Below the pieces are notes generated by a model. That model saw nothing but the letters and a program-made list of their open reading frames with translations. It was not told the DNA's origin and did no database searches. This document shows positions 2,735 to 48,843 of a stretch of 64,000 nt of DNA, one piece after another (the stretch's first letter is position 1; each line of letters opens with the position of its first letter). Source of the DNA: a virus (taxonomy: Duplodnaviria; Heunggongvirae; Uroviricota; Caudoviricetes); IMG/VR virus record IMGVR_UViG_3300045051_000014. One strand, 5' to 3'. Made by a program: the position numbers and the translations under genes.

Positions 2735-3573
2735 TGATTAAAGACGATTCCCGACTTCGACAGAAAGCTTGGTCAGATTACAGAATGCGAATGCGAGAAG
2801 AGATTCAGGGCAAGGGTTATCCCAAGGCTCTCTCCGAAGTCGGGAAGGTCGCACTGATCTGTATTGCGAAGGATGAAGATCGCTACATCGAAGAGTGGAT
2901 CGAATATCACTTGAAGCTAGGTGTGGACAGTATCTACATCTACGAAAACGACTGGCGTTCTAATCTAGGATGGCATGAACAGATTGACACGATTCCCTTC
3001 GATGGAAAGCATCGACAGGTCTATGCGTACAATCACTGGTTGTTCAGTAGTGAAGCCGAATACTTCGATTGGGCAATCTTCATTGATGTGGACGAGTTCA
3101 TAGTCTTGAAGCAGCATTCCTCTATTCAGGAGTTCTTGCGCGACTATGGAAATCTTCCAGAAGGTGTGGATGCCATTGCGGTGAATTGGATGATGTTTGG
3201 TGATAGCGGCGTGAGTGAGAGTGAGGGTTCCGTACTGGAACGATTCACACACAGAGGCGCGGTTCCAGACAGGCACATCAAGAGCATCGTGCGGCTGAAC
3301 GGCGACCGAATGATGCTGACGACACACAACACGTTCGGCTACTGGATAGACACGAACGGCAAGGTAGGCGAAGGACAGAACAATTTTGACGGTAATGGCG
3401 ATGTGATTCAGATCAATCACTATTACTGTAAGACGAAAGAAGAATTTATTCGAAAGGTGAATCGTGGCAGAGCGGACTGTGGATTGCTCTGGAACGAGTG
3501 GGATTTCGATCAGTACAATCAAAACGAAGTTGAAGACCTCACGGCACTCAACTTCATCAAGGGGAAGAAATGA
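2734..3573 (+). CDS. Glycosyltransferase (GT-A fold; GT2-like/GT92-like)
   Basis: ICIAKDE..YIEEWIEYH..LGVD.IYIYEND, W.IFIDVDEFI (DxD motif), INHYY.KT.EEF..K..RG. Confidence 0.85.
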   Translation: MIKDDSRLRQKAWSDYRMRMREEIQGKGYPKALSEVGKVALICIAKDEDRYIEEWIEYHLKLGVDSIYIYENDWRSNLGWHEQIDTIPFDGKHRQVYAYNHWLFSSEAEYFDWAIFIDVDEFIVLKQHSSIQEFLRDYGNLPEGVDAIAVNWMMFGDSGVSESEGSVLERFTHRGAVPDRHIKSIVRLNGDRMMLTTHNTFGYWIDTNGKVGEGQNNFDGNGDVIQINHYYCKTKEEFIRKVNRGRADCGLLWNEWDFDQYNQNEVEDLTALNFIKGKK

Positions 3574-3801: not shown

Positions 3802-4137
3802 ATGTGGAACTATAAGGCACGTTGCTACCGAGTGGTTGACGGTGACACCTATGACGTAACCGTGGATCTTGGATTCAACATCCACCACAACATTCGGTTG
3901 CGTCTGCGTGGAGTCAATACTCCTGAAATCTTCGGTGCTACTGCATCCGAAGAGGGTAAGAGAGCCGCTGAGTTTGTCAGAGGCTTGCTTGAGAATAAGG
4001 ACGTTGTGGTTACAACGTACAAGGCTCAACCTTCTACCTTCAATCGCTATGAAGCGGATGTGATGGTGTTGGTTGAAGGTGTGCCAGTGGATATTGCCAC
4101 GCACATTGTTGAACAAGGATACGGAATAAGGGTTTGA
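3802..4137 (+). CDS. Thermonuclease (SNase)-like nuclease
   Basis: RVVDGDT.D...DLGF, RLRGVNTPE motifs. Confidence 0.75.
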   Translation: MWNYKARCYRVVDGDTYDVTVDLGFNIHHNIRLRLRGVNTPEIFGATASEEGKRAAEFVRGLLENKDVVVTTYKAQPSTFNRYEADVMVLVEGVPVDIATHIVEQGYGIRV

Positions 4138-4140
4138 TTA

Positions 4141-4446
4141 TAGTGGTATGATGTGAAGTGAAGGTGCTTTGGACGCGGGTTCGACTCCCGCCTGCTCCAC
4201 CAAAAGAATTCTCGCGTTAGAGCCACCATCGAAAGGTGACGTATGGCAGGGAATGTAAGCCGAGAGTTCTTTTTATGGGGCAGTCAAGGTTTCGACAGGG
4301 CAAGATAGCGGAACGGACCACTAGAGAGGCGACTGACTTAATCAGCGCAAAAACTGTAAAAGCAAACGAAGACTTTTACTCGCAGGAAATGGCACTAGCT
4401 GCCTGATCCAGACGGAGCATGACCCACTTGGCAACAGAATGGGTCA
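4141..4446 (+). ncRNA. ssrA: Circularly permuted (two-piece) tmRNA: acceptor piece ~4141-4202, intervening segment 4203-4276, coding piece 4277-~4446
   Basis: T-arm GCGGG-TTCGACT-CCCGC then CTGCTCC-A-CCA lies upstream of GGGGCAG..GGTTTCGAC; the 7-bp acceptor stem pairs with a G3:U alanyl determinant; helix-2 pairings CAGGGCA/TGCTTTG and ACCACTA/TAGTGGT; tag frame 4362-4406 ANEDFYSQEMALAA*. Confidence 0.92.
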
Positions 4447-4449
4447 CGG

Positions 4450-4478
4450 CAAGGGGAGGCAACTCCCCTTGTCTTTTT
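4450..4478 (+). terminator. Rho-independent terminator of the tmRNA gene
   Basis: CAAGGGGAG-GCAA-CTCCCCTTG followed by TCTTTTT. Confidence 0.85.
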
Positions 4479-4507: not shown

Positions 4508-5110
4508 ATGCGCCGACTAATGACTTTGGTGATGATGCTTTTCGTGATGACAATGCCGGTACACGCTGACGAATCCACGCCAGAAGATGCTACCCCAATT
4601 CTCTCTTCTATCAACTCCGTTGGCGAAGCGATAATCGGACTTCGCAACGACATAATTGATTTCGTGATTCCAACCATTCGTATTCCCAAGGACGTTCCTG
4701 CAAAGGAAGTGAAGTGCCTTGCGGACAACATTTACTTCGAAGCGAAGAACGAACCTTACGAGGGGCAGCTTGCAGTCGCGCAGGTTACTCTTAATCGTGT
4801 CGATCATCCCGAATACCCTAAGACGGTATGTGGTGTGGTCTGGCAGCAGAACAAGGATCGTCGCACCGGCAGAAAGGTCGCTCAGTTCTCATGGACATTA
4901 GACGGAAAGCCAGACGTTCCTAAGTCTAAGACGGCTTACGAACAGGCATACTCCGTCGCAGAAGAGGCATTGCTTTATGGCACGCAATCTGCTATCATAG
5001 GGACTGAGGCACTGTTCTATCACGCTAATTACGTGAAGCCACGTTGGGCGCGGCAGATGGAACGGATTGCCAGAATTGGAAACCACATCTTTTATCAACC
5101 AAGAATCTAA
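4508..5110 (+). CDS. SleB/CwlJ-like cell wall hydrolase (Hydrolase_2) with N-terminal signal peptide
   Basis: CLADNIYFEAKNE, AVAQVTLNRV, YPKTVCGVV, QFSW, ALFYHANYVKPRW, IGNHIFY; GGAGG SD before ATG 4508. Confidence 0.9.
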   Translation: MRRLMTLVMMLFVMTMPVHADESTPEDATPILSSINSVGEAIIGLRNDIIDFVIPTIRIPKDVPAKEVKCLADNIYFEAKNEPYEGQLAVAQVTLNRVDHPEYPKTVCGVVWQQNKDRRTGRKVAQFSWTLDGKPDVPKSKTAYEQAYSVAEEALLYGTQSAIIGTEALFYHANYVKPRWARQMERIARIGNHIFYQPRI

Positions 5111-32883: not shown

Positions 32884-35217
32884 ATGACCAGTAGCGTAAA
32901 CGTTTCCACAGTCGTAGTCGCCAATACGTTCGACCAATGGCGCATTCAGACGAATCTTCTCAAAGATGACGTTAACGAAATTGCGCGTGGTGATTTCGTC
33001 AAGCCTACGGGTAACGTGACCCTCACTGTGGGTCGCATCGTTCTTCCTAATGCAACGGGAACCATGTTGGACGTTACCGCAGACGCTCGCGTTTCCGGTA
33101 AGATTTCGGTCAAGAACATCGAACAGGACGGTGGTGCTGCGTATCTCTATTCGGATTCTACGGATATCAAGTTCCGTGCAGGCGACGGTACGTTCCATGC
33201 CAACGGCAACACGCGCACTCGCTTCCTTTACAACAATACGTTCTTCTCCGGAGCCAACGTCAATGCGACAGGCTTCATTGAAACTACCGGAACCTATGCT
33301 AACGGCAACGTGATCATGAACGTGGCAAACGTTCTGGTCGTCCGTTCGGTTGCCAACAGTTCCAACGTCTACATCACAGGCAACGTTCAGGTTTCAAACG
33401 TAGCAACGATTGGCAATGCCCGAATCACTCTGGCAAACACCACTACCGAGAACGTCTTCACGCTCCATGCAAATACGACGGGCGCAACGGCAAACTTTGC
33501 CAACGCATACTTTGCCAACACAAATACGGTCAATGCGGTCATCGGCACAGCCAATGTCCAGACTCGCCTGAACGCAACCTCGGCAAACATCACAACCGCA
33601 AACGTTGCGACACTCAACGTTGCCGCTGCCGGTGCCACCGCAAACTTCGCAAACGTTACACTGGCTAACACGACGACAACCAACGCATCTATCGGTGTGT
33701 TGAATGTGACGACTCGCGAGAACGTGGTTCTGGCTAACATTGTCACGGCAAACATCGGCACGTTGAATGTATCGGGTGATGCACGCATCGCTACGGGCAA
33801 CGTCACGACTCTGAATGTAGTCACCGGTAATATCGGAACTCTATCGGTCACAAGCCTCTCGGTAACGGATCCAATCTCGGCTCCTTCCGAAACGGATTCC
33901 TCCTCCTACCGCCTGCGCGTTTCGCAGTCCACTCGCGGCGACGGTACGTTCGGTGTCTTCCAAGGCACGACGAATGGTAACGCACAGATCGCATTCTCTT
34001 CTACGTCTAATACGTGGCAGGCAACCGCAAACGATCTTGGCGGATCGTCCACTCTCATTACTACTGCAAATGTTAAGTCTACTTACGCCAACGAATCGGC
34101 AAACGTCGGTTCGCTCACGGTGGTCAAGGGTGCGAACGACAATGCTCTCGCAGCTTTTGCCTCTTCGAACGTGGCAGCTAACACGGTACGTGTCTCGGCA
34201 CAGTCTGCATCGACCATTCACAATGCTCAGTTGAACTTCATCAACTCGGCATCCATCAATGTCTCGGTCACGACGGGTGCAACGGGTAACGCAAACATTT
34301 CCTTCACTGCAAACTCTTCGAACCCGGCATTGCTAGGTCCACAGGGTATTCAGGGTACAACTGGCATTCAGGGATCTACGGGTCCACAGGGTATTCAGGG
34401 TGTTCAGGGAACAAAGGGAACGGATGGTATCATCGGTTCTAATGGATCGCAGGGTACGACAGGTGCGCAGGGTGCCACCGGTTCACAAGGAACGACCGGT
34501 GCTAACGGATCGAATGGTTCTCAGGGAACGACCGGTGCGAACGGTTCAGCCGGATCGCAGGGTATTCAGGGTGTGCAGGGAACGACCGGCGCGAACGGAT
34601 CGAATGGTACGCAAGGTGCGACCGGTGCTAACGGATCGAATGGTGCGCAGGGTTCTACCGGTGCCACAGGCTCGACGGGTTCGACGGGTGCGCAAGGTAT
34701 TCAGGGTATCACCGGTACGCAGGGTACGACAGGATCGCAGGGTGTCATCGGTGCTACTGGTCCTTCGACCGCAATTAACGCATCCAACAGTTCGGGTGGT
34801 AACTTCCACCTTGTCGGTGTCTCGTCATTCGGTTCTAACTACACACCTTACATCTACTCAGGCGTAGTCTACATGAACAACGGCGCGGTCTATGCAACAG
34901 ACTTTGCCGCAACCTCGGATGCTCGCCTCAAGAACGTTCTTGGATTTGTGGATGGTGCGAACGAACTTCTCGGTAGAATCAACGGCATTCGATACACATG
35001 GAACTCACTCGGAGAAAGCCTCGGATTCAAGAGTTCACATTCTGAGGGAGTGGAGCTTGGTGTTCTTGCACAGGAAGTCGAAGCAGTTCTTCCAGAAGCC
35101 GTACATACGGATGAGAATGGATACAAGAGAGTTTCGTATGACCGCTTGATTCCTGTTCTGCTTGAGGCAATCAAGGATCTTAATGCTCGTATCAAGGTAC
35201 TGGAAGCAAAAGAGTAA
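32884..35217 (+). CDS. Tail fibre with collagen-like segment and C-terminal S74 intramolecular chaperone
   Basis: N-terminal NTFDQWR..TN; G-X-Q repeats ~34336-34763; TSDARLKN..., GVLAQEVEAVLPEAV, VSYD.LIPVLLEAIKDL. Confidence 0.85.
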   Translation: MTSSVNVSTVVVANTFDQWRIQTNLLKDDVNEIARGDFVKPTGNVTLTVGRIVLPNATGTMLDVTADARVSGKISVKNIEQDGGAAYLYSDSTDIKFRAGDGTFHANGNTRTRFLYNNTFFSGANVNATGFIETTGTYANGNVIMNVANVLVVRSVANSSNVYITGNVQVSNVATIGNARITLANTTTENVFTLHANTTGATANFANAYFANTNTVNAVIGTANVQTRLNATSANITTANVATLNVAAAGATANFANVTLANTTTTNASIGVLNVTTRENVVLANIVTANIGTLNVSGDARIATGNVTTLNVVTGNIGTLSVTSLSVTDPISAPSETDSSSYRLRVSQSTRGDGTFGVFQGTTNGNAQIAFSSTSNTWQATANDLGGSSTLITTANVKSTYANESANVGSLTVVKGANDNALAAFASSNVAANTVRVSAQSASTIHNAQLNFINSASINVSVTTGATGNANISFTANSSNPALLGPQGIQGTTGIQGSTGPQGIQGVQGTKGTDGIIGSNGSQGTTGAQGATGSQGTTGANGSNGSQGTTGANGSAGSQGIQGVQGTTGANGSNGTQGATGANGSNGAQGSTGATGSTGSTGAQGIQGITGTQGTTGSQGVIGATGPSTAINASNSSGGNFHLVGVSSFGSNYTPYIYSGVVYMNNGAVYATDFAATSDARLKNVLGFVDGANELLGRINGIRYTWNSLGESLGFKSSHSEGVELGVLAQEVEAVLPEAVHTDENGYKRVSYDRLIPVLLEAIKDLNARIKVLEAKE

Positions 35218-35223
35218 TCCTGC

Positions 35224-36201
35224 ATGGCAACCGTTACTAATCCTGCATCGCTGAATTCGGTTAAGAGTGTATTTGGTGGACCTAACAATCTCCGTGCGTA
35301 TCTGCGCGGCGGTACGTATGTGTTGGGTATTGCCAACGCATATCCAAACATTGCGGCATCCGGAACACTTCTTCTTTCTGGATTTGCGGGTACGGTGAAG
35401 CCGGTTACGTATCTTCCTGCTAATACAGATTCGACCAACTCCCCACCACCGGGAGTGTCGGCATATGCAGAAATTGAAATCGGTGGAGCTTCCAACACCA
35501 CAGTTAAGTATAATAGTACCGCAACTTGGAGGCTCGCAGGAAATCCCGGCGACTATGAAGTTTACTTTCAGAAGAACAGTGGAACTACTCCTGCGGGATC
35601 AGCCGTTAATACATGGTTGAATCTTGCTACGACTCGTACATGGAGTCTATCACAGGCTCCAACGAATAACAATAAGACCACTTACGGACAATTGTTAATT
35701 CGTATGAGCGCATCACCATTCACAACGCTGAATACCGCAGGCGTATGGATGTACGTGTTCGCTGAATCTAACCAGTGTCCAACGTGCTGCTTCACACCAG
35801 ACACGCTTATCTCCATGGCAGATGGAACCACAAGAGCAATCGTTGCCGTCATGGTGGGCGATTGGATCATGGTCCGTGGTGGAACGAAGCAAGTCACCGA
35901 AGTCATCACACGGACGAATCGGGTCATGTACCAGATTCAGTTCGCAGACGGTCGCATTCTCAATGCCTCGGAAGACCACCCTCTCTACGTGGTGGACAAG
36001 GGCTACGCAGCCATCAACCCCGGTGTCGGTGGAATGTACAAGGACTTGGGCATTCCAGATCAGTTGTACGTGGGCGACCTCGTTCTCGACTCGGAAGGCA
36101 AAGAGAACCAGATTGTGTCTATCACTGAGCTTGACTATCCAGAAACGGTCTACACCTTCGCAGAGAGTGAGTTCTACGCCAACGGTATGCTCGTCTACTA
36201 A
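35224..36201 (+). CDS. Putative fibre-tip protein with C-terminal Hint domain
   Basis: N-terminal SL..VK..FGG.N.L..Y; CPTC-CFTPDTLI.MADG..., SEDHP, VY....FYANGMLV. Confidence 0.75.
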   Translation: MATVTNPASLNSVKSVFGGPNNLRAYLRGGTYVLGIANAYPNIAASGTLLLSGFAGTVKPVTYLPANTDSTNSPPPGVSAYAEIEIGGASNTTVKYNSTATWRLAGNPGDYEVYFQKNSGTTPAGSAVNTWLNLATTRTWSLSQAPTNNNKTTYGQLLIRMSASPFTTLNTAGVWMYVFAESNQCPTCCFTPDTLISMADGTTRAIVAVMVGDWIMVRGGTKQVTEVITRTNRVMYQIQFADGRILNASEDHPLYVVDKGYAAINPGVGGMYKDLGIPDQLYVGDLVLDSEGKENQIVSITELDYPETVYTFAESEFYANGMLVY

Positions 36202-36236
36202 TTCCCTAAATAGGTGGAATCCTCAGAGGAATTTCC

Positions 36237-36569
36237 ATGTACGCAGAACTTACCATTGACCAAGGCACTACGTTTTCGTCCACCATTAACCTCACGAACG
36301 ACGACAACACACCTATCGACTTGACGGGACATTCCTTTTCCTGTCAGGTTCGCAAGTCCTATTACTCGACTAATGCGACAGCCAACATTGCCGTTACGGT
36401 AGAAGGTGCCAATACCGATGGTGTTGTGCGCCTGACCCTAGACTCAGCCAACACTGCTAACATCAAGCCGGGGCGCTATCTATACGACCTTAAGATGACC
36501 GACGAAGCCAATACGGTCATTCGTGTTGTCGAAGGCATCGTCACGATCACGCCACAGGTTAGCAGATAA
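36237..36569 (+). CDS. Conserved phage virion adaptor protein (BppU-like Ig fold)
   Basis: L.IDQGTTF....L...P.DLTG......R..Y.S, G.V.L.L...T..I.PGRY.YD, R..EG.V...P.V. Confidence 0.7.
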
Positions 36570-39500
36570 TGAAAGTAGAGATTAAGTCTCAGAACAAGGT
36601 CGGAAAGGTTGAGGTATCCCCGGTAGCATCCGTAGGAACCGTCAACATTCGAACCGGTGTTCCCGGTCCTGCCGGTGTTGCCGGTAATACGACCATTATC
36701 AGCGATACCTTTGTTGCGGGTGCCGCTCAGACGGCTTATCCTCTTTCTTATGAGCCTTATGGCGAAGATTTTGTCATCGTTACTCTTAACGGTGTCACAC
36801 AGACTCCTAATACCCATTACAATCTAAGCGGCAACACGCTGAACTTCATCACCGCTCCGGATCAGGGTGACAACATCGAAGCTCGTATCTTTACTTCCGT
36901 TGGCATCGTCAGTGGAAGTCAGGGTTTGACCGGTGCGCAAGGAACAAAAGGATCACAGGGAACCACAGGCATTCAGGGAACGCAAGGTGTACAAGGTCTG
37001 GATGGTCTGTATGCGGCACAAGGTATTCAGGGACCGCAGGGTGCAGATGGTATTCAAGGTACTGCCGGTGTCCTAGGTGGCGATGGTGCGCAAGGCATTC
37101 AGGGTCTTCAAGGTCTGACAGGTGCCGGTACTCAGGGCGCTACGGGTTCACAAGGAACTCAAGGCGTACAAGGTCGTCAAGGTGTGACCGGAACGGGAAC
37201 GCAAGGTGCAACTGGTTCTCAGGGTCTTACTGGAACTGGCACACAGGGCGCGACGGGTTCTCAAGGTCTAACAGGAACCGGAACTCAGGGAGCTACTGGC
37301 TCGCAGGGAACTCAGGGTGTTCAGGGTCAAACCGGCTCTGGATCGCAGGGTGCTACCGGATCACAAGGTTCTACTGGTATTCAGGGATCCACTGGTACTC
37401 AAGGTCTGACTGGCGCAGGAACTCAAGGTGCCACAGGTTCTCAAGGTGTTCAGGGTCTTACTGGCACAGGCACTCAGGGTGCGACAGGATCGCAGGGTCT
37501 TACCGGATCCGGCACGCAAGGTGCTACGGGTTCGCAAGGCGCAACCGGTTCACAAGGTACGCAAGGTCTGACTGGTGCTGGAACACAGGGCACAACGGGT
37601 TCTCAGGGTGTGCAAGGAACCACTGGTCTACAGGGTTTGACCGGTGCCGGAACTCAAGGTTCGACCGGCTCTCAGGGTGTTCAAGGTACACAAGGCATTC
37701 AGGGTACCACCGGTCTACAGGGTCTTACGGGTACTGGAACTCAAGGTTCAACAGGTACTCAAGGTTCTACCGGTACGCAAGGCACGACGGGTTCTCAAGG
37801 AACTCAGGGTGTACAAGGCTTGCAGGGTACGGTAGGTACTGCCGGTGACAGATACTCAACGACCTCCGCAACCTCCCTCACAATTGGTACGGGCAACAAG
37901 CAACTTACCATCGGAACTGGACTGGCTTATTCTGCCGGTCAGTCAGTCGTCATTGCAAACAACGCAACGAACAAGATGGAAGGTTCTGTTTCCGCGTACT
38001 ACACCGCAAACGGAACCATGGTCGCATCCATTGCAACCACAGGTGGATCCGGCACGTTCAACGTGTGGGATGTTAACCTCGGTGGTGCGGCAGGTGCAGA
38101 CGGTGCGCAGGGTGTTCAAGGAACGACAGGTTCGCAAGGTGTTCAAGGAACGACGGGCATTCAGGGTAACACTGGCACGCAAGGCGTACAGGGTCTAACC
38201 GGTGCAGGAACACAAGGCGCAACTGGATCGCAGGGTTCGACCGGTACACAAGGCACAACAGGCTCGCAAGGTTTGACCGGAACTGGAACTCAGGGTTCGA
38301 CTGGTACACAAGGTACCACCGGATCTGGAAGTCAAGGTGTTCAAGGCACCACAGGTTTGCAAGGATCTACTGGAACCGGTACTCAGGGAGCAACCGGTAC
38401 TCAGGGTCTTACCGGAACTGGCACGCAAGGTGTACAGGGAACGACTGGTTCTCAGGGTCTAACAGGCACCGGTACGCAAGGCGCGACTGGATCACAGGGT
38501 TTGACTGGAACAGGAACGCAAGGTGTTCAAGGAACCACAGGTCTACAAGGATCAACGGGTACAGGAACGCAAGGTGCCACCGGTTCGCAGGGTCTTACGG
38601 GTTCCGGAACTCAAGGTGTTCAGGGAACCACTGGATCACAAGGTCTTACTGGCACCGGCACACAGGGAACGACCGGTTCTCAAGGTGTACAAGGTCTACA
38701 GGGTGTTCAGGGTACGACAGGCGGCGAAGGCGTTTCCGCAGGATCGACTGCGTATCGCTTCGACACAAGCACGGTTGACTCTGATCCCGGTGCAGGTAAG
38801 CTCAAGTTTAACAACGGCAACCTCACGCTTGCAACCCTCATGTGGGTTGACAACGTAAATGATCCGGCAGTCGATATCTCCGCATTCCTCAACGCGACGA
38901 ACGTGGGCGACAGGCTGTACGTGCAGAGAACGACTGATGCGGCAGTGTTCTTCTACTACACCGTTACGAGTAAGACGAATAAGACGGGCTACTACGAATT
39001 CGGTCTGACGCTAATCAATAACGGCACCGGCACCGTATTCACCAACAACGAAAAGATTTTCCTTGCCGTAGGCTATCGCGGTGCGCAGGGTGTACAGGGT
39101 GCGACCGGAACAGGAACGCAAGGAACCACTGGTTCTCAGGGTACACAAGGAACCACTGGATCACAGGGTCTAACAGGCGCAGGAACTCAAGGCGTTCAAG
39201 GTACAACAGGTTCTCAGGGTCAGACCGGCGCAGGTACACAAGGAACCACTGGATCGCAAGGTACACAAGGTCTAACTGGTGCAGGCACTCAGGGTGCAAC
39301 TGGTACTCAGGGTGTTCAAGGCACGACGGGTAATCAGGGTACAACTGGTGCGGGAACTCAAGGTGCCACCGGTACTCAAGGTGTGCAAGGCACAACTGGT
39401 CTGCAAGGTCTGACCGGTGCGGGAACGCAAGGCGCAACTGGATTGCAGGGTGTTCAGGGAACAACGGGTTCTCAAGGTGTTCAAGGAACTCAGGGTGTTC

Positions 39501-41068
39501 AGGGTAATCAGGGTGATGCGGCTGGAATGAGATACAATTTCAGCACCAACACTACGGACACTGATCCGACGACTGGTATCTTCAAGTTCAACAACGCAAC
39601 AATCGCTTCCGCAACGTTGATGTATATTGACAACACGGATCGCGGCAGCGTTGACATGACTGCATTTATTGATTCGTGGGATGACTCTACCGACACAAAC
39701 AAGGGTCATATCTACATCAATTCAAACGTAAACAGCGACACATCATATTTCATCTTCCGCGTTACGGGTGCGGTGATTGATGGAACAGGCTATAGAAAGG
39801 TTCCTATTGCGTTTGTTGCCGGAAACACACTCACTGATGGTGAGATTTGTGTTATCTATTTCAACGCAACGGGCGACATTGGTGCGCAGGGTATACAAGG
39901 AACGACAGGAACTCAAGGCGTACAAGGAACGACTGGTCTACAAGGCACGACGGGTACTGGTACGCAAGGTACAACCGGTACTACAGGCACTCAGGGTTCG
40001 ACTGGTACTCAAGGTACGACCGGAGCAGGTACGCAGGGTGTCCAAGGCACAACCGGTATTCAAGGATCTACGGGTACTCAGGGAACAACTGGAAGTGGAT
40101 CGCAGGGTGTTCAAGGCACGACTGGTATTCAAGGAACCACTGGTGCTGGAACTCAGGGTGTACAAGGCACTACGGGAATTCAGGGATCGACCGGAACTCA
40201 AGGTACCACCGGAGCAGGCACGCAGGGTGTTCAAGGTACGACAGGTCTACAGGGAACCACAGGCGCGGGAACTCAAGGTGTTCAGGGAACCACTGGCATT
40301 CAAGGGTCCACTGGTACTCAGGGTGTTCAGGGAACGCAGGGTGTTCAAGGTCGTCAAGGTACAACCGGAACGGGTACGCAGGGTGCGACCGGTGCGTTGT
40401 CGCCGTGGACGAAGAAGACTACAGCTTACACGCTACTCAATAATGATCGTATCATTGTCGATTCGTCAGGCGGTACCTTCAACCTCACGTTGCCTGCAAC
40501 TCCATCCGAAGGAACGTATGTACAGATCACGGATGGTGCAAGTCTACAAACTACGCCAGTCACAGTCCTGCGCAACGGTTCTACAATCGAAGGTGTCGCA
40601 GATGACCTCTCGCTCACTATCGGCAATACCACTTACGAATTGATCTACTCAGGATCCACATGGCATGTCACCGCACAAGCCGGTTCGAAGGGTGATGGTG
40701 GTGCGCAAGGAACGACAGGTGCGCAAGGTGTTCAAGGAACGATTGGCGCACAGGGTCCGACGAACCTTCCTCTAAATACTCAGACAGCCGGATATACGCT
40801 TGTTCTTTCGGATGCAGGCAAGCTAATTTCCATCACAACCGGTGGTGTCATCATTCCCGCTAACTCTTCTGTCAACTTCCCAAGAGGAACGATGGTCAGC
40901 ATTTACAATGATTCGGCTGCAAACCAGTCGCTCTCGATCACGACCGATACGTTGAGACTCGGCGGAACCGCAACCACAGGAACGATGAACATTGTGCAGC
41001 GTGGTATCGCGACTGTCCTCAAGGTGGCTAACACCGAATGGGTCGCATCCGGCGCAGGAGTAGGCTAA
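36569..41068 (+). CDS. Long collagen-like fibre protein (1499 aa), multiple G-X-Y blocks separated by globular knobs
   Basis: Extensive [10 protein letters not shown]-type repeats; duplicated knob YxFxTxTxDxDP..G..KFNN; C-terminal NTQT..YTL..SDAGK domain. Confidence 0.85.
36914..40760 (+). repeat. Interrupted 9-nt-periodic coding repeat (collagen-like G-X-Q/G-X-T), approximate bounds
   Basis: Dozens of degenerate CAAGGT/CAGGGT/ACTGGT units. Confidence 0.9.
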
Positions 41069-41069
41069 C

Positions 41070-41507
41070 ATGCCAATGCAGCAGATGGCACTCATGCACT
41101 ATAAGGCTCCTCCTGCCGGTGGTGGTGGAGATTCGGCATATCTTGAAAATGTTGCTTTGGTATTACCGGCTATCACTTCGGCGCAGGTAATTTTCAATAC
41201 TGCGAGCGGTAATATTGAATACATTGAAGATTCTTCTATAAAAAACACATACACATGGAAGACTGGAACCGGCGCACTAACTGACTATGATGCTAAGTAT
41301 ATAGAAACTGTAGCAACCGGACCCGTTTCCCTAGCAGGTAGCGCAGTAAATGCTTGGATTACGATGGCATTAAACACACCATCATGGAGTTTGGGTGCTG
41401 GTGCAACAGATAGCGTTAGTTCTGGATATTTGCTAATTAGAAATAACCTTAGTCTACAAGAACTTGCGAATGTCACGCTAGAAATACGAACGAACGCATT
41501 CGCATAA
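41070..41507 (+). CDS. Putative fibre-tip/adhesin protein
   Basis: Follows the fibre gene; shares a TW..DY..GSAVN.W..WSL..G.LLIR motif with 35224 and 49135; AT-richer codons. Confidence 0.6.
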   Translation: MPMQQMALMHYKAPPAGGGGDSAYLENVALVLPAITSAQVIFNTASGNIEYIEDSSIKNTYTWKTGTGALTDYDAKYIETVATGPVSLAGSAVNAWITMALNTPSWSLGAGATDSVSSGYLLIRNNLSLQELANVTLEIRTNAFA

Positions 41508-41519
41508 CGGAATAATGAA

Positions 41520-42116
41520 ATGGCACAAGACGTAAAAACAGTTCTCGGCAGTAACTTCACTGGTCCACAGGGAATTCAGGGAGCAACCGGTGCAGGCACG
41601 CAAGGTGTTCAAGGCACTACTGGCATCCAAGGCAACCTAGGAACTCAAGGTACAACAGGCGCAGGCACGCAAGGTGTTCAGGGAACCACAGGAACCGGAA
41701 CTCAGGGTGTTCAAGGTACGACCGGTGCCGCAGGTCCGCGCACGCTCAACTTCCTGATTTCGGGTGGCGGCGCGGCGATTACGACAGGCGCAACAGAAGC
41801 CGCTCAGACAAAGGGCTATATCTATACCTCACAGAACCTCGTCATTGATTCGTGGTCGTTGCTCTCCAACGCATCCGGAACAATCGTTGTAGATATCTGG
41901 ACAGGAACGTATTCTGCATTCCCAACGTTGGTTCTCGCATCGTCTACTACACAAAGACCTCGACTCTCAGCCGCGTCGAAGAACACCGCATCGAACTCAG
42001 GCATGACGATCACGAACATTGCCGCAGGTAACGTCATTCAGTTCCGTGTGAACAGTGTCGCGACAGTTGACGTAACAGACGTTACGGTGGTCATGAACGT
42101 TATTGCTACATCATAA
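41520..42116 (+). CDS. Short collagen-like fibre protein
   Basis: G-X-Q repeats ~41560-41735, then a beta-rich C-terminal domain. Confidence 0.75.
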   Translation: MAQDVKTVLGSNFTGPQGIQGATGAGTQGVQGTTGIQGNLGTQGTTGAGTQGVQGTTGTGTQGVQGTTGAAGPRTLNFLISGGGAAITTGATEAAQTKGYIYTSQNLVIDSWSLLSNASGTIVVDIWTGTYSAFPTLVLASSTTQRPRLSAASKNTASNSGMTITNIAAGNVIQFRVNSVATVDVTDVTVVMNVIATS

Positions 42117-42131
42117 TAGGTGATTTAAGAC

Positions 42132-42863
42132 ATGCCTCGTCCATCAGTACGATCACAAGCGAATACAACCGGTACGACCGCAATCTCGTTGACTCCACCC
42201 GCAGGGCATCAGGTCAATGACCTAATGATCGTGGGTATCGAATCCGCGAACGAAGCCGCAGCAACATGGGCATCCGTATTCTCTGCCGCAGGATGGAATG
42301 CTATTCCTGCCGGTGCCGGTGGTCCTCATCCCGGCTTAGGAACCGCAGCCGCCGCGAACGCAACTCGACTCACGCTATTTTGGCGGCGGGCTGCGAACAC
42401 CACAATGCCTGTCATCGACATTGCGGACTCGGGCGACCACACTTCTGCGGGTCTTCTCATTATTCAGGATGCGAACACGACTGTCGATCCTCCATGGGAA
42501 CTCGCAGCGAATACAAGTCAGGCTACGAACACGACGACGATTTCGTTCAACTCATTCACTACGACGAATGCGAACACTCTAATCGTTCACTTCGCAGGCG
42601 TGGACACAGACACCGCTGCCGCACAGGGTTCTGCGCCGACAAACGGCAACCTATCCAACCTCACTGAGCATATCGACGTATTCGCATCGGGTCAGGACGG
42701 TGGTGGTATCATCGTCTTGTCGGGTGGTAAGGCTACCGCAGGCTCTACGGGTAATACGACACTCACTCTTGCGACGACAGAAATCTTCACCACATGGAGT
42801 GCGGCAATCTTGGGAACTCCGGATGCTGTTATTAGACCATGGGCGCAAGCCGTATTCATCTAA
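42132..42863 (+). CDS. Putative virion protein (possible partner of the 41520 fibre)
   Basis: Thr/Ala-rich beta domain (P.G...NDL.IV); coupled to the fibre gene. Confidence 0.6.
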   Translation: MPRPSVRSQANTTGTTAISLTPPAGHQVNDLMIVGIESANEAAATWASVFSAAGWNAIPAGAGGPHPGLGTAAAANATRLTLFWRRAANTTMPVIDIADSGDHTSAGLLIIQDANTTVDPPWELAANTSQATNTTTISFNSFTTTNANTLIVHFAGVDTDTAAAQGSAPTNGNLSNLTEHIDVFASGQDGGGIIVLSGGKATAGSTGNTTLTLATTEIFTTWSAAILGTPDAVIRPWAQAVFI

Positions 42864-42890
42864 ATACCGGGAACACTCCGGAAGAGTAAC

Positions 42891-44855
42891 ATGCCAAATA
42901 AGCCTACCTCAAAACAAATTCTCATTAGCGCAAACAACGCACTGGCTAACATCGTGTTGGCAAACGGTGTTGTCAACGCGACTGAGATTCAGGTGGGTGG
43001 TACACTCGTCATCAACTCCGAAGGCTATTTCGTCGGTACAGGTGGCGGTGGTGGCGGCACGCAAGGTGCGACGGGTGCGCAAGGTATTCAGGGAACGAGT
43101 GGCTATGTCGGTAGTGATGGTGCGCAAGGTGTTCAAGGTACAACCGGATCCGGATCACAAGGCACGACTGGTTCGCAAGGATCCACAGGTACGCAGGGAA
43201 CAACAGGTTCTCAAGGCACCACAGGCTCACAGGGTTTGACTGGAACTGGTACTCAAGGCGCTACAGGATCACAGGGTCTTACGGGAACGGGTACTCAAGG
43301 TGCCACAGGCTCTCAAGGATCTACTGGTACCCAAGGCACAACCGGATCACAGGGAACGACTGGCTCACAAGGTTTGACCGGAACTGGAACTCAGGGTGCG
43401 ACAGGTTCTCAAGGAACCACAGGCTCACAAGGCGTTCAAGGTCTAACTGGCGCAGGCACGCAAGGCACAACCGGCTCGCAGGGTTCAACTGGAACTCAAG
43501 GTGTTCAGGGACTAACCGGTGCCGGAACTCAGGGAGCTACTGGCTCACAAGGTTCTACTGGTACTCAGGGCGTTCAAGGTCTAACTGGATCCGGATCGCA
43601 AGGTGTGCAAGGAACGACCGGTTCACAAGGTCTTACTGGTACAGGCACGCAAGGTGCAACAGGTACTCAAGGCGTTCAGGGTCTTACCGGTTCTGGATCA
43701 CAAGGCACAACTGGATCGCAAGGGTCCACTGGCACTCAAGGTGTTCAGGGTCTGACGGGCGCGGGAACTCAGGGCGTACAAGGAACGACCGGTATTCAGG
43801 GTAACACTGGCATTCAAGGCACTCAAGGTGTTCAGGGTCTAACTGGTGCAGGAACACAGGGCGCGACGGGTGGTGGAACCGCTGCCGGATCGAACACCGA
43901 AATTCAGTTCAATAATAATGGTGTGGTTGGCGCTTCGGCAAATTTAACGTTTGATCTTGCATCGAACACCGCATTCGTATATGCCATTAACGTTGCAACG
44001 GATTTGCAACTTACTACATTCAACCCATCTACACCACCATCGACCGGTAATGTTTTGATTTTCGGTCGAAGTGTCGGTGGACGAATGATGCCTGCATTCA
44101 TGGGTCCATCGGGTTTGGATTCTTCGTTGCAACCAATTCTCGCAAGAAATCGGGTTTCGTGGATTCAATGGACGGGTACTGCGGCACTCGCCAACTCTCA
44201 AATGGGTTTGCCTGCTGCACCAACATATACTGGAACACAAACTGCCAGAACACCAAGCGCAACAAGCTTTTATCAATCTATTCGCCGTCTTGGATTGGTG
44301 AGTGCCGCTACCGCAGGATCAAACAGTTCAATGCGTGTTGCGTCTACACACTGGCTACGCGGCAATACAGCAGGTATGGGTGGATTCCACTATATTGTGA
44401 GATTCGGTGTTGCCGATGCTGCGGTGGTTTCGTCTGCGAATATGTTTGTTGGGTTGACTAACACTTCTACACTATTTGCTAACTCTGCAAATGTAGCGAC
44501 ACTTGCAAACACGATTGGTGTAGGTCAGGTGGGAACAAGTAACAACCTACAGATTATTACTAATTTGAATAGTGCCACCGCACATCTGATCGACACAGGA
44601 TTACTATGTAACGTTGGTAACGCTGCCGTTTGGGATGTTGCAATGTTTGCTGCCCCTAATGATGATAAGGTTCAGTTTGGTATCACCAATATTGCAAATA
44701 CGGCACAAACATACAACACCACGATCACCGCTAATTCGGTGAACTTGCCACTTGGTAATACTATGCTATGTCCGTACATCTGGCGTACTAATGGTGGTGC
44801 GGCATCAGCCGTTGCAGTAGACCTGATCAGTCTGTATATCGAAACCGATAGTTGA
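42891..44855 (+). CDS. Collagen-like fibre protein with lectin-like C-terminal domain
   Basis: G-X-Q repeats ~43056-43870; [12 protein letters not shown] module; preceded by late promoter CTAAATA 42860-42866. Confidence 0.8.
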
Positions 44856-44892
44856 TCGTCTAAATAGGGTGACACTATCCCTAGGATAAACC

Positions 44893-47800
44893 ATGGCAGA
44901 CTTTCCTTCCAATCCGACCATCGGCACGATCTTCACTTCCAACGATGGTACATCATGGGAGTGGGACGGTTATTCGTGGAAAGCGGGTGGTGGACTCGGC
45001 GGTGGCGGCGGAATCTCAGAGATTTACGTATCCGCGAACTCCGCATCGACCGTCAATGCGAACGGTCTGAACTTCATCAATTCGGCAACCGTCCTTGTCA
45101 ATGTCGTTCCCGGCGTGACAGGTAATGCCAATGTCTCGTTCTCTTCTGCTCCCGGTCCTCAAGGTACTACCGGCATTCAGGGTTCCACCGGCATTCAAGG
45201 AACGCAGGGTGTTCAGGGATTGCAGGGACCACAAGGCACGACAGGTATTCAGGGTGCAACCGGCATTCAAGGTTTGACCGGTATTCAAGGAACTCAAGGC
45301 GTACAGGGAACCACAGGAATTCAAGGATCGACTGGTATACAAGGATCGACGGGTACTCAAGGTTCGACCGGTACACAGGGATCGACTGGTACACAAGGCA
45401 CGCAGGGTGTTCAGGGTCGCCAAGGAACTACAGGCTCTCAAGGCGCGACAGGTACGCAGGGTTCGACGGGTATTCAAGGTTCTACTGGTATTCAGGGATT
45501 CACCGGCTCGCAGGGAACTCAAGGTGCAACCGGTTCTCAGGGAACGCAAGGTGTACAGGGACGACAAGGCGTACAAGGTCTTGATGGTCTATTCGCGGGA
45601 CAAGGTGCAACCGGTGCGCAGGGTCCACAGGGCGTTCAAGGTGTCGAAGGTGGTTCGGGCGTAACTACACTACAGACCAATCAATACACATCGACGGCAA
45701 ACCAGACTGTCTTCACACTAAGCACTTCTGTAGTGAGTGAGAAGTACGTCTTCGTCACTCGCAACGGTGTCGTTCTCGTTCCTACTTCACACTATACGGT
45801 TGCCGGATCGACGCTAACACTTACCTCTAATACTCAGGCAGGCGATATCATCGAAGCTCGCGTCTTCGAAACATTGGGTGTAGGTATTCAGGGTGTGCAG
45901 GGTGTACAAGGAACGACCGGCACTCAGGGTGCAACTGGCACACAAGGTTTGACAGGCATACAGGGATCGACGGGTACACAAGGTTTTACTGGTGCGCAGG
46001 GAACTCAAGGTGTTCAGGGAACCACCGGCATTCAAGGTCTAACTGGTATTCAGGGTTCGACGGGTCTGCAAGGTATTCAGGGTCCGCAGGGAACCACTGG
46101 TATTCAAGGATCGACAGGTACGCAGGGAGTAACCGGCTCACAAGGCACTCAAGGTGTGCAGGGTCGCCAAGGTGTTCAGGGAACGACCGGCATTCAGGGT
46201 GCGACGGGTACACAGGGAACTCAAGGTCTGACTGGCGCAGGCACTCAAGGTGCTACTGGTTCTCAGGGTACGACAGGCTCTACCCCTGCCATCGGCGGTG
46301 CCAACACGCAGATTCAATTCAACAACAATGGTGTGTTGGGTGGATCGGCAAACCTTGTATTCAATCTCAACGGCAACACATTCACGACGAACTACGGTGT
46401 GTTCTCTGGTGGTGGATTAGAAGTTCAAGGACTCTATCCTCAAGTTAAGTGGTATCAGAGTGACGGTGCCGTAAACGAAAAGAACTCCGTAATGTTGGTG
46501 GACGGTGGATCGTGGGATATTCGTTTCTACGACGATGCAAGCTCGGCATACGGAACACCAATAAACATTCAACGAACCGGCATCAATCCAACCACGATAA
46601 CGTTGAATGCCAACGTTCAATTTATCAGCACGGCAGAACCAACCGCACTTCTCTATCGCGATGCTCAAGCAAATGGAGTGGGTGTCGGTCTGCTTTATTG
46701 GGATGGAAAGAACGCATCTGGTACTCGCGTATCTTACGCACGCCTACAGACCGAGATTTCTTCCAACGTTGCGGGTGCGCATACTGGCGCATTCCAGATT
46801 GAGACTTCGCAAGCCGGAGCAATGCTTCCGGTAATCACGGCTAATGGCGCACTTGTTGGTATCGGAACTGTCAGCCCACAAGCATCACTTGATGTGAATG
46901 GAAGCGTCAGAATTAAGGAGAATGGATCGCAACTCACCCTGAATGAATCAGACGGTCCTGATCCTGTAGATAGAGGCATTGTTGAAGTTAATTTGGGCAA
47001 CTTCAACATCTATACCCATGACAACTCCACGAATACGTGGAGACTGCCATTCTCAGCAAATATTGCGACGGGTAATGTCACAATCGGAAACTGGCAAGTA
47101 TCTGGTTCGGATCAAGGTGTTCAGCGACTCGCACAAAGTACCGAAGTTTTCACCTATGACGGTGACAACCTCGCGCACTACGGACTCTCGTACTATCCGG
47201 ACAGTGGCAACGGCGGAACGACGGCTGCGTTGTCTGGATACTATGGTATCAAGTTCTTTACTTCTGGTGTTCATGCGTACTCCATCGACTCGGGTGGAAC
47301 TCTAATCAGCAGAAAAAACGGTGCAGAAGTCACCCCGCTCGCGCTATACAATGATACCGCAAGCCAGTTGGTAAACACAAGCATTCGAATTGGATATAGC
47401 ACCAGTGGCTATGGTTGGAAGGTCACTAGCAACAACAATCCATCTTCACAGTACGCAGGACGCTTGGAGTTCTGGCGCGGCAACGGTGGATATGCTCTGG
47501 CAGGATATTTCAACAATGACGGACAGTTTATTCTTCCTAGCGCAAATGTTGGTATCGGTTCCAGTGCCACAGCACCATCTTCACCGCTCAACGTAGACAA
47601 TGGTTCCTCTCGACTACACATTGGTTACAACGGAAGCCAGAACTACATTGATGGTTCTGACACATATTTCCGCACCTATGCGGGTGATACAAACTTCTAT
47701 CTTGTAAGCAACACCAAGATCATTCACTATGCGGGTATTGTATCTGACTCATTCCAAAACACAGACTTACAGCGTTCATTGAATCCGAAGGGTGGTGCGC

Positions 47801-48843
47801 GTGGATCGCGAACCATCACTGAAACGGGCTACATTGCCATCAAGCTGCCAACTGCACGATTGAACTCGGACTCCATGATGTGCTTCACGGTCAACATCTA
47901 CGACTATGCGGGTGGATCAGAAGCTCAAGGACGACAGATTCGTATCTATGGTTACAACTATGGTGGTGGTTGGTTCAACTGTGGCGCGACAGATCTTTGC
48001 GCAAACGGATCCATGACACCGCTTGAAGTTCGCTTTGGTCACGATGGTACGCGCAATATTGTCTGGATCGGAAGTTCAGGAACCGTCTGGAACTATCCAC
48101 AAATTAGCGTTGTAGATCACCAAGCGGGATATTACACATCTGCTGATTGGGCGCAGGGATGGGATATTACCATCACAACTACTCTCAATACGGTCAGTGT
48201 GGGTCCGCTTTACACCAACAAAGCAATCGTATCTAACTACGAAAACTCGGCATGGTTGGAACCGAATAAAGATGGATCATATGGTCAGTGGCAGATCAGC
48301 GGTTCCAAGGGAAGCTATGGTGGAATTTTGGACACCTATTCTGGTGTCAACTGGATGTATGATAATGCGGGTAATGGTGGATTCTATCGGGCTGCATCCT
48401 ACGGATGGAGCCAGTATTACAGTGCAACAAATGCCTGCCTAGGTGTCTACGGCAGCACCACATCATCTTCCTACAAACTCTATGTCTCTGGTGCTATCTA
48501 CGCAACAGGCGACATTGTGGCATTCTCGGATCGTCGCCTCAAGGAAAACATTTACACGATTGAGAATCCACTCGACAAGGTGCTAAGACTTCGCGGTGTT
48601 AACTTCAACCGCATTGACGATCCTGACAAGAAGCTACAGATGGGTGTCATTGCGCAGGAAGTTCTGGAAGTGGTTCCAGAAGTCGTCACACACTCCGAGA
48701 AGACAGACGCGGAAGGTAACGCAGGCGAAGAATACGGAGTCAACTACGGTGCGCTAGTCGGCGTACTGATCGAAGCAGTGAAGGAACTCAACGCGAAGGT
48801 TGAGGCACAGGCAGAACTAATCAGGAAACTAACCAATGGCTAA
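44893..48843 (+). CDS. Long tail fibre with collagen-like blocks, mosaic beta domains and S74 chaperone
   Basis: N-terminal FPSNPT.G..F...G..W.WDG..W; repeats ~45154-46285; FSDRRLKENI, GVIAQEV..VVPEVV, VNYG.LVG.LIEAVKEL. Confidence 0.87.
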   Translation: MADFPSNPTIGTIFTSNDGTSWEWDGYSWKAGGGLGGGGGISEIYVSANSASTVNANGLNFINSATVLVNVVPGVTGNANVSFSSAPGPQGTTGIQGSTGIQGTQGVQGLQGPQGTTGIQGATGIQGLTGIQGTQGVQGTTGIQGSTGIQGSTGTQGSTGTQGSTGTQGTQGVQGRQGTTGSQGATGTQGSTGIQGSTGIQGFTGSQGTQGATGSQGTQGVQGRQGVQGLDGLFAGQGATGAQGPQGVQGVEGGSGVTTLQTNQYTSTANQTVFTLSTSVVSEKYVFVTRNGVVLVPTSHYTVAGSTLTLTSNTQAGDIIEARVFETLGVGIQGVQGVQGTTGTQGATGTQGLTGIQGSTGTQGFTGAQGTQGVQGTTGIQGLTGIQGSTGLQGIQGPQGTTGIQGSTGTQGVTGSQGTQGVQGRQGVQGTTGIQGATGTQGTQGLTGAGTQGATGSQGTTGSTPAIGGANTQIQFNNNGVLGGSANLVFNLNGNTFTTNYGVFSGGGLEVQGLYPQVKWYQSDGAVNEKNSVMLVDGGSWDIRFYDDASSAYGTPINIQRTGINPTTITLNANVQFISTAEPTALLYRDAQANGVGVGLLYWDGKNASGTRVSYARLQTEISSNVAGAHTGAFQIETSQAGAMLPVITANGALVGIGTVSPQASLDVNGSVRIKENGSQLTLNESDGPDPVDRGIVEVNLGNFNIYTHDNSTNTWRLPFSANIATGNVTIGNWQVSGSDQGVQRLAQSTEVFTYDGDNLAHYGLSYYPDSGNGGTTAALSGYYGIKFFTSGVHAYSIDSGGTLISRKNGAEVTPLALYNDTASQLVNTSIRIGYSTSGYGWKVTSNNNPSSQYAGRLEFWRGNGGYALAGYFNNDGQFILPSANVGIGSSATAPSSPLNVDNGSSRLHIGYNGSQNYIDGSDTYFRTYAGDTNFYLVSNTKIIHYAGIVSDSFQNTDLQRSLNPKGGARGSRTITETGYIAIKLPTARLNSDSMMCFTVNIYDYAGGSEAQGRQIRIYGYNYGGGWFNCGATDLCANGSMTPLEVRFGHDGTRNIVWIGSSGTVWNYPQISVVDHQAGYYTSADWAQGWDITITTTLNTVSVGPLYTNKAIVSNYENSAWLEPNKDGSYGQWQISGSKGSYGGILDTYSGVNWMYDNAGNGGFYRAASYGWSQYYSATNACLGVYGSTTSSSYKLYVSGAIYATGDIVAFSDRRLKENIYTIENPLDKVLRLRGVNFNRIDDPDKKLQMGVIAQEVLEVVPEVVTHSEKTDAEGNAGEEYGVNYGALVGVLIEAVKELNAKVEAQAELIRKLTNG

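Follow-up and report, generated by a model that had tools for sequence, protein, structure and literature searches.

Genomic context of the tmRNA gene

At positions 4142-4478 of the + strand, the window (the whole stretch of DNA analysed, 64 kb in length) very probably carries a working two-piece tmRNA gene of the betaproteobacterial (Rhodocyclaceae) type, in the genome of an uncultured T4-like myovirus from rhizosphere soil. The gene is placed between a staphylococcal-nuclease-like ORF of 111 aa (3802-4137, + strand; Pfam PF00565), which stops 4 nt 5' of the tmRNA helix 2, and a cell-wall hydrolase ORF of 200 aa (4508-5110, + strand; Pfam PF07486), which has its own GGAGG ribosome-binding site. 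Phage homologues of the latter are annotated as endolysin or cell wall hydrolase, and the encoded protein is probably the endolysin.

All large frames are carried by the + strand, and the gene content is that of a T4-like myovirus: PhoH, nucleases, gp59, gp32, baseplate hub and wedge, collagen-like tail fibres, neck proteins, TerL, sheath, tube and portal are all encoded on the same strand as the tmRNA gene. TerL is 47-49% identical to the terminases of Melnitz, Pelagibacter phage Mosig and cyanomyophages. The first 20 kb of the window, compared by megablast with GenBank phages, gave 0 matches, so no close cultured relative is known. The whole stretch was found in three rhizosphere metagenome runs, which are probably its source. 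As a separate observation, four adjoining ORFs (777, 1499, 654 and 1316 aa) at 32884-48843 all match collagen-like tail-fibre families; this module contains many repeats and is unusually large for a T4-like phage.

Since tmRNA genes frequently serve as integration sites (PMC11915505), the locus might be taken for a host ssrA flanking an integrated prophage, or for an attP remnant; some IMG/VR contigs whose tags have 10 residues could be such cases. For the window this can hardly be credited: phage genes lie on both sides of the tmRNA gene and occupy the entire 64 kb, on a single strand and in the order of T4-like phages, and no integrase was found among the about 40 ORFs scanned. Neither a second tmRNA copy nor an att-like duplicate of the tmRNA 3' end is present in the window and the GC content is even along it (48-54%), which argues for a phage gene rather than a host ssrA at a prophage border.

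Detection and structure of the two pieces

The only RNA gene that ARAGORN called in the 64 kb is a permuted tmRNA, which has the tag ANEDFYSQEMALAA; no tRNA genes were called in the window. Two Rfam covariance models matched the locus above their gathering scores and over their full length: RF04321 (tmRNA_permuted) with 137.5 bits (gathering score 47; model positions 1-213 of 213) and RF01850 (beta_tmRNA) with 115.8 bits (gathering score 84; model positions 1-331 of 331). The expected helices were also obtained by folding the segment 4140-4480 without priors, with a thermodynamic z of -5.8 versus shuffles. An earlier note, made from the letters of this DNA, had assigned to this place a phage tmRNA that is circularly permuted and has an intact tag ending in LAA. 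ARAGORN, Rfam and the flanking phage genes all agree with that reading, and the acceptor stem with its G3:U pair, the T-arm, helix 2, the tag, the 3' hairpin and the terminator were all found, with coordinates within one base. The one correction concerns the tmRNA 3' end, which had been set at 4191-4202: strand, A and CCA stand, while CTGCTCC begins at 4192.

The acceptor piece (4142-4202), on which Rfam alignments, ARAGORN and the fold agree, contains the 5' strands of helix 2 (4142-4146 and 4165-4171) and the T-arm (4175-4191, with 4175-4179 paired to 4187-4191 in the Rfam alignments and in the fold), and ends with the acceptor 3' strand CTGCTCC (4192-4198), the discriminator A4199 and an encoded CCA (4200-4202). 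The 5' part of the coding piece (4277-4361; Rfam alignments and fold) opens with the acceptor 5' strand GGGGCAG (4277-4283; G3 is 4279). The order is thus permuted, the 3' acceptor strand with its CCA (4192-4202) lying upstream of the 5' strand. Together they form a 7-bp acceptor stem, in which G4279.U4196 represents the alanine identity pair G3:U70. A D-loop analogue (4284-4295) is followed by the 3' strands of helix 2 (4296-4302 and 4318-4322), which pair as 4142-4146/4318-4322 and 4165-4171/4296-4302; the middle of this helix is irregular and poorly paired in the Rfam alignments. The pseudoknot-1-type region (4323-4348) contains a 7-bp bulged hairpin (4329-4336/4342-4348), pseudoknot stem 1 having here only 2 Watson-Crick pairs, and an A-rich lead-in stands directly 5' of the resume codon.

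The tag frame starts at the alanine resume codon GCA, runs for 14 codons (4362-4403; ANEDFYSQEMALAA, as called by ARAGORN) and ends in a hydrophobic LAA followed by the stop codon TGA (4404-4406). In the E. coli tag, the N-terminal AAN..Y is the site of the SspB adaptor and the C-terminal LAA that of ClpX; we take the window tag to be a similar one, with four extra residues (SQEM) between the SspB and ClpX sites. The Caulobacter tag, AANDNFAEEFAVAA, is extended in a comparable manner, an acidic insert preceding its hydrophobic AA end.

The 3' end of the coding piece (4420-4478) is made of a hairpin (4420-4426/4440-4446; RF01850 alignment and fold) and of an intrinsic terminator (stem 4448-4473, T run 4474-4478; terminator scan and fold), and the two (4420-4446 and 4448-4473) correspond, in the alignment, to the final two helices of RF01850. 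After the tag there are, therefore, just two simple hairpins where other tmRNAs have pseudoknots 2-4, as is typical of RF01850.

No sigma-70-type promoter was found upstream of the gene on the + strand, including the gap after the nuclease-like ORF. The conserved TATAGT at 4139-4144 was rejected as a -10 box, since it overlaps the covarying outer strand of helix 2. As no such promoter is present, the gene is probably transcribed by read-through from the upstream genes of the early region, with transcription ending at the terminator (4448-4478) and processing likely to follow.

The intervening segment

The two pieces are separated by a segment of 74 nt (4203-4276), which is predicted to be excised, in view of its fold and low conservation. 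Its ends (4203-4214/4261-4272) form, in the predicted fold, a 12-bp stem that prolongs the acceptor stem, and TTAT (4273-4276) remains outside this stem as a leader before G1. No conserved gene is found inside this spacer (4203-4276). Two open frames were considered and rejected as genes, an ORF of 56 aa that shares the frame of the tag (4236-4406) and a frame of 21 codons with its ATG at 4243: both fall in the spacer, a segment that is unalignable between close relatives.

Spacers were delimited by T-loop anchoring in the viral loci L003-L210 and L331-L343. Most of the long viral spacers end with TGAT right before G1, the window having TTAT. The median spacer length is 60 nt in viral genes (up to 165), against 4 nt in chromosomal Rhodocyclaceae-type genes, a contrast that is descriptive, drawn from sets gathered by pattern scans and from phylogenetically non-independent counts, with possible proviruses containing host ssrA on the viral side. 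Of the unique viral spacers at least 40 nt long (111), 90% have ends that pair over at least 8 bp, in prolongation of the acceptor stem; the corresponding figure for shuffled spacers is 0%, the shuffles of no spacer averaging 8 bp of end pairing or more. The CTCT/AGAG motif of the spacer stem was also considered as a general signal and discarded: it is limited to the sub-lineage of the window (8/111), and thus reflects shared ancestry.

Conservation in viral relatives

The nearest relatives of the gene are all viral, being found on the IMG/VR contigs L336 (48.8 kb; tag ANESTYSQEMALAA), L161 (7.4 kb; tag ANEDFYSQELALAA), L002 and L332; the last two share the tag ANADVYEEVRLAA with L342, on contigs of up to 99 kb. 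The order nuclease-tmRNA is repeated in L161 and L002, and in L161 the hydrolase follows, as in the window. When the window is compared with these nearest relatives, identity is 87-99% in the acceptor piece and in the 5' part of the coding piece and about 78% in the flanking DNA, whereas the spacer, with only about 30-55%, is unalignable.

Paired positions change in a compensatory way. The T-arm stem is GCGGG/CCCGC in the window and AUGGG/CCCAU in L161, and the outer part of helix 2 is AGUGG/CCACU in the window, GGUAG/CUACC in L334 and GGUUG/CAACC in Moby. The genes compared had been selected by patterns fixing CTCCACCA, GGGG and GGTTTCGAC, so that the invariance of G1-G4 and of G3:U is there by construction; the 3 free acceptor pairs, the 5 T-arm pairs and the 7 inner helix-2 pairs are kept in 94-100% of 154 unique viral genes, with two to six pair types each. 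The free pair 4334-4344 of the pseudoknot-1 hairpin is Watson-Crick in 141/141 relatives, as G-C, U-A or C-G.

Within the clade, the ALAA codons of the tag show synonymous changes, M is replaced with L, and TGA, TAA and TAG are exchanged with one another. Synonymous changes of this kind, together with interchangeable stop codons, are the signature of a translated frame. Sequence comparison thus indicates that the gene is under selection in phages, RNA and tag alike, as judged from the much higher identity of the mature parts relative to the spacer, the compensatory pairs and the synonymous changes in the tag.

A further IMG/VR contig with a related permuted tmRNA (L338) also carries a tRNA cluster and, at 2888-3335, a GOLLD RNA (RF02032, 204 bits).

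RNA type, origin and host

When the locus was analysed by cmscan, beta_tmRNA was kept as the best member of the tRNA/tmRNA clan over a lower-scoring overlapping member, and it outscored the alpha type (RF01849). The window also shares with Rhodocyclaceae chromosomes a block of the pseudoknot-1 region, GGCGAC-N-GAC-N-TAATC-N-GCGC. A scan for this block, covering 185,579 species with one genome each, gave at least 120 matches; those listed belong almost only to Rhodocyclaceae-type Betaproteobacteria (Azonexus/Dechloromonas, Accumulibacter, Thauera, Azoarcus, Propionivibrio and Aromatoleum among the genera), and the Rhodocyclaceae-type chromosomal genes among them are all permuted. In a maximum-likelihood tree, the window gene belongs to a clade of five genes, all of them viral (support 100/98), which sits in a larger clade (99/98) together with Rhodocyclaceae genes and several viral lineages. 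By these sequence features the RNA is of the betaproteobacterial (Rhodocyclaceae) type, not of the alphaproteobacterial one. The clan call, the marker block and the tree placement leave the hint of an alphaproteobacterial host, given in the earlier note, unsupported.

The same tree bears on the origin of the gene. Phages acquire fragments of host ssrA by imprecise excision (PMC9004378), and the locus might be a gene recently captured from a host, now decaying or carried along as a neutral hitch-hiker; that no promoter was found upstream would fit this. That the locus is such a functionless remnant is, nevertheless, very unlikely. The viral clade of the window is not embedded in the bacterial group; identity to the best bacterial matches amounts to only about 73-77%, in blocks of about 90 nt; the mature parts are far more conserved than spacer or flanks, with compensatory changes; and the gene order is repeated in relatives that are 78% identical at the DNA level. 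A maintained and working phage gene is the reading followed below.

The type of the RNA is a poor guide to the host of the phage. Menderavirus phages carry a beta-type two-piece tmRNA, whereas a full-length one-piece tmRNA (190-197 bits) was found in each of the five Stenotrophomonas and Dyella genomes tested, from species other than S. maltophilia, the host of these phages; moreover, the phage Melnitz has an alpha-type gene and a betaproteobacterial host (PMC9004378). As a caution, the class of the host is not identified by the structural type of the tmRNA that a phage carries.

The same five Xanthomonadales genomes were also found to carry a second, permuted tmRNA of the beta type, scoring 128-144 bits (L280 351-703, L240 1330-1678 and L266 2017-2329; also L257 and L306). 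The tags of these second genes are 13-18 residues long, as in ANADYYDQDEEVILRVA, and that of Dyella is identical to the tag of the IMG/VR contig L335. No phage genes could be recognised within 8 kb of the second gene of Stenotrophomonas rhizophila (L280).

Comparison with known systems

Two-piece tmRNAs of phages, which the earlier note had presented as a departure from mostly one-piece forms, are already published and abundant, and the window adds one example. They made up 53 of the 133 unique phage tmRNAs in a census of early 2021 (PMC9004378), and the tmRNA of Marzo, a T4-like Stenotrophomonas phage, has been described as 'Betaproteobacter-class' (PMC8928761). Some GenBank phage records annotate the gene as ssrA or tmRNA, and more than 200 IMG/VR contigs carry the permuted-tmRNA signature, a lower bound obtained from two pattern scans. 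The type being both described and common in viral databases, the novelty of the locus is lowered, a possibility that the earlier note had itself raised.

The Rhodocyclaceae-type two-piece tmRNA (RF01850) corresponds to the 'third lineage' of Sharkady and Williams 2004, as this work is cited in PMC11915505. Chromosomal genes of this type are permuted like the window gene, and share with it all RF01850 helices, including the two 3' hairpins, the block of the pseudoknot-1 region and the tree clade. They differ in being chromosomal instead of phage-borne, in their spacers (median 4 nt, versus 74 nt in the window), in their tags (10 residues, such as ANDERFALAA and ANDEQFAIAA, in 37/38 unique genes among the matches listed, the exception having 11, versus 14 in the window) and in their sequence, which is about 73-77% identical to the window in conserved blocks.

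Among phages, the gene is matched in format by that of Menderavirus (Moby, Mendera, Marzo, IME-SM1 and Bhz51), T4-like myoviruses with a permuted beta-type tmRNA whose spacer is long and self-pairing (56-71 nt) and whose tag is extended to 14 residues, VAANDDSYTVRIAA. The two tmRNAs are, however, only about 66% identical, the Menderavirus gene is part of a tRNA cluster while no tRNA genes are found in the window, and the phages are not close relatives, giving no megablast match. Melnitz, a phage of Methylophilales, and the pelagimyophages are also T4-like myophages, of aquatic or soil origin, with the nearest TerL (48-49% identity) and a permuted tmRNA in the early region, and no phage smpB is reported for them (PMC9004378), as none is found in the window; the Melnitz gene, however, is of the alphaproteobacterial type and is associated with a glutamine riboswitch (PMC9004378), while the window gene is of the beta type and no riboswitch was matched by Rfam within the window. 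The two-piece tmRNA of Caulobacter, due to Keiler, Shapiro and Williams 2000 (as cited in PMC11915505), works on the principle proposed here for the window, with a permuted gene, an excised segment and two paired RNAs, but on an alpha-type scaffold (RF01849) and from a chromosomal gene. The tmRNAs of mycobacteriophage cluster C1 are, like that of the window, phage-encoded rescue RNAs relying on host SmpB; they are one-piece, with standard gene order (RF00023), and the DS6A form has no tag frame (PMC11915505).

Possible expression and proposed working

Contigs at least 95% like the mature tmRNA pieces are present in soil and sediment metatranscriptome assemblies. One of them, a soil contig of 248 nt, matches 4152-4205 with 0 differences and 4275-4387 with 3 differences, and joins both mature pieces through a different spacer of 81 nt; it derives, therefore, from a relative. 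This contig is either a precursor RNA or DNA carry-over. A close relative of the phage is, in any case, present in another soil study, and is possibly transcribed there. By sequence match, these contigs faintly hint at expression of the tmRNA, and they may be DNA carry-over.

A six-frame search of the window with a Rhodocyclaceae SmpB query was empty, in line with the earlier note, and no smpB was found in two related phage records that are 100% complete according to CheckV (Moby, 159 kb; an IMG/VR contig, 188 kb), analysed with the Pfam SmpB model, which was positive on control genomes. With smpB absent from the window and from both complete relatives, host SmpB would be needed.

From the sequence, the structure and the selection on RNA and tag, we infer processing, charging, use of host SmpB and benefit as follows. 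The precursor would fold with the 74-nt spacer paired on itself (4203-4214/4261-4272), TTAT being left as a leader. The spacer would then be excised by the tRNA-processing enzymes of the host, with RNase P cutting before G4277 and 3' trimming stopping at the CCA that ends at 4202. Two products are predicted, of about 61 nt for the acceptor piece and about 200 nt for the coding piece, which would stay associated through the acceptor stem and helix 2. Host AlaRS would charge the RNA through G3:U70 and A73, and host SmpB and EF-Tu would deliver the charged RNA to ribosomes stalled on broken messages. Translation would resume at GCA 4362, appending AANEDFYSQEMALAA, that is (A)ANEDFYSQEMALAA, a putative degron with a ClpX-type LAA end. 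The likely benefit for the phage would be a larger capacity for ribosome rescue while host mRNA is being destroyed, with recycling of truncated proteins; recycling of amino acids and relief from RNA-cleaving defences are more speculative candidates for a lytic phage.

A phage without its own SmpB must compete for that of the host, and the RNA might act mainly as a decoy or competitor, occupying host SmpB, AlaRS or stalled ribosomes and damping host trans-translation. A tag-less tmRNA-like RNA of mycobacteriophage DS6A did inhibit the endogenous tmRNA in E. coli (PMC11915505). In the window, however, the tag frame is intact and its peptide is conserved, through synonymous changes and interchangeable stop codons, and the elements for resumption are all kept (helix 2, the pseudoknot-1-type hairpin, the A-rich lead-in and the GCA resume codon); a role chiefly as a decoy is, accordingly, unlikely, and trans-translation with tagging is the preferred reading.

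Tags and spacers in the family

Tags of 12 or more residues are found in 66 of 159 unique viral genes (42%), a count which, like that of the chromosomal 10-residue tags, is descriptive, comes from pattern-scan sets of phylogenetically non-independent genes, and may include, on the viral side, proviruses carrying host ssrA. The commonest extended tags follow the pattern AN[DE]xx[YF]-x-E-xx-[AR]LAA, as in ANDDVYFEDFALAA, ANDAFYGEDRLAA and ANENSYFEEFALAA, and tags of 24-33 residues occur in a few viral genes (loci L003-L210, ARAGORN). All 16 extended-tag loci submitted to Rfam matched tmRNA_permuted, and beta_tmRNA was kept in all 15 with a clan call.

Tags of 12-14 residues appear, from their sequences, to contain a short and mostly acidic insert (here SQEM) between the AAN..Y adaptor motif and ALAA. 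Such an insert could change the handover of tagged proteins to ClpXP-type proteases of the host during infection. Similarly, the long spacer with paired ends could be an insulated processing cassette, which may be swapped or may even hold genes. It is a tentative and still doubtful idea that the beta-type two-piece tmRNAs of phages and mobile elements form long-lived lineages of their own, set apart by extended tags and long spacers.

Taken alone, the window is of small significance, as one well-formed example that mends an unannotated stretch of a metagenomic phage. The patterns of tag length, spacer length and end pairing across the family, on the other hand, could show what phages gain from carrying a rescue RNA of their own.
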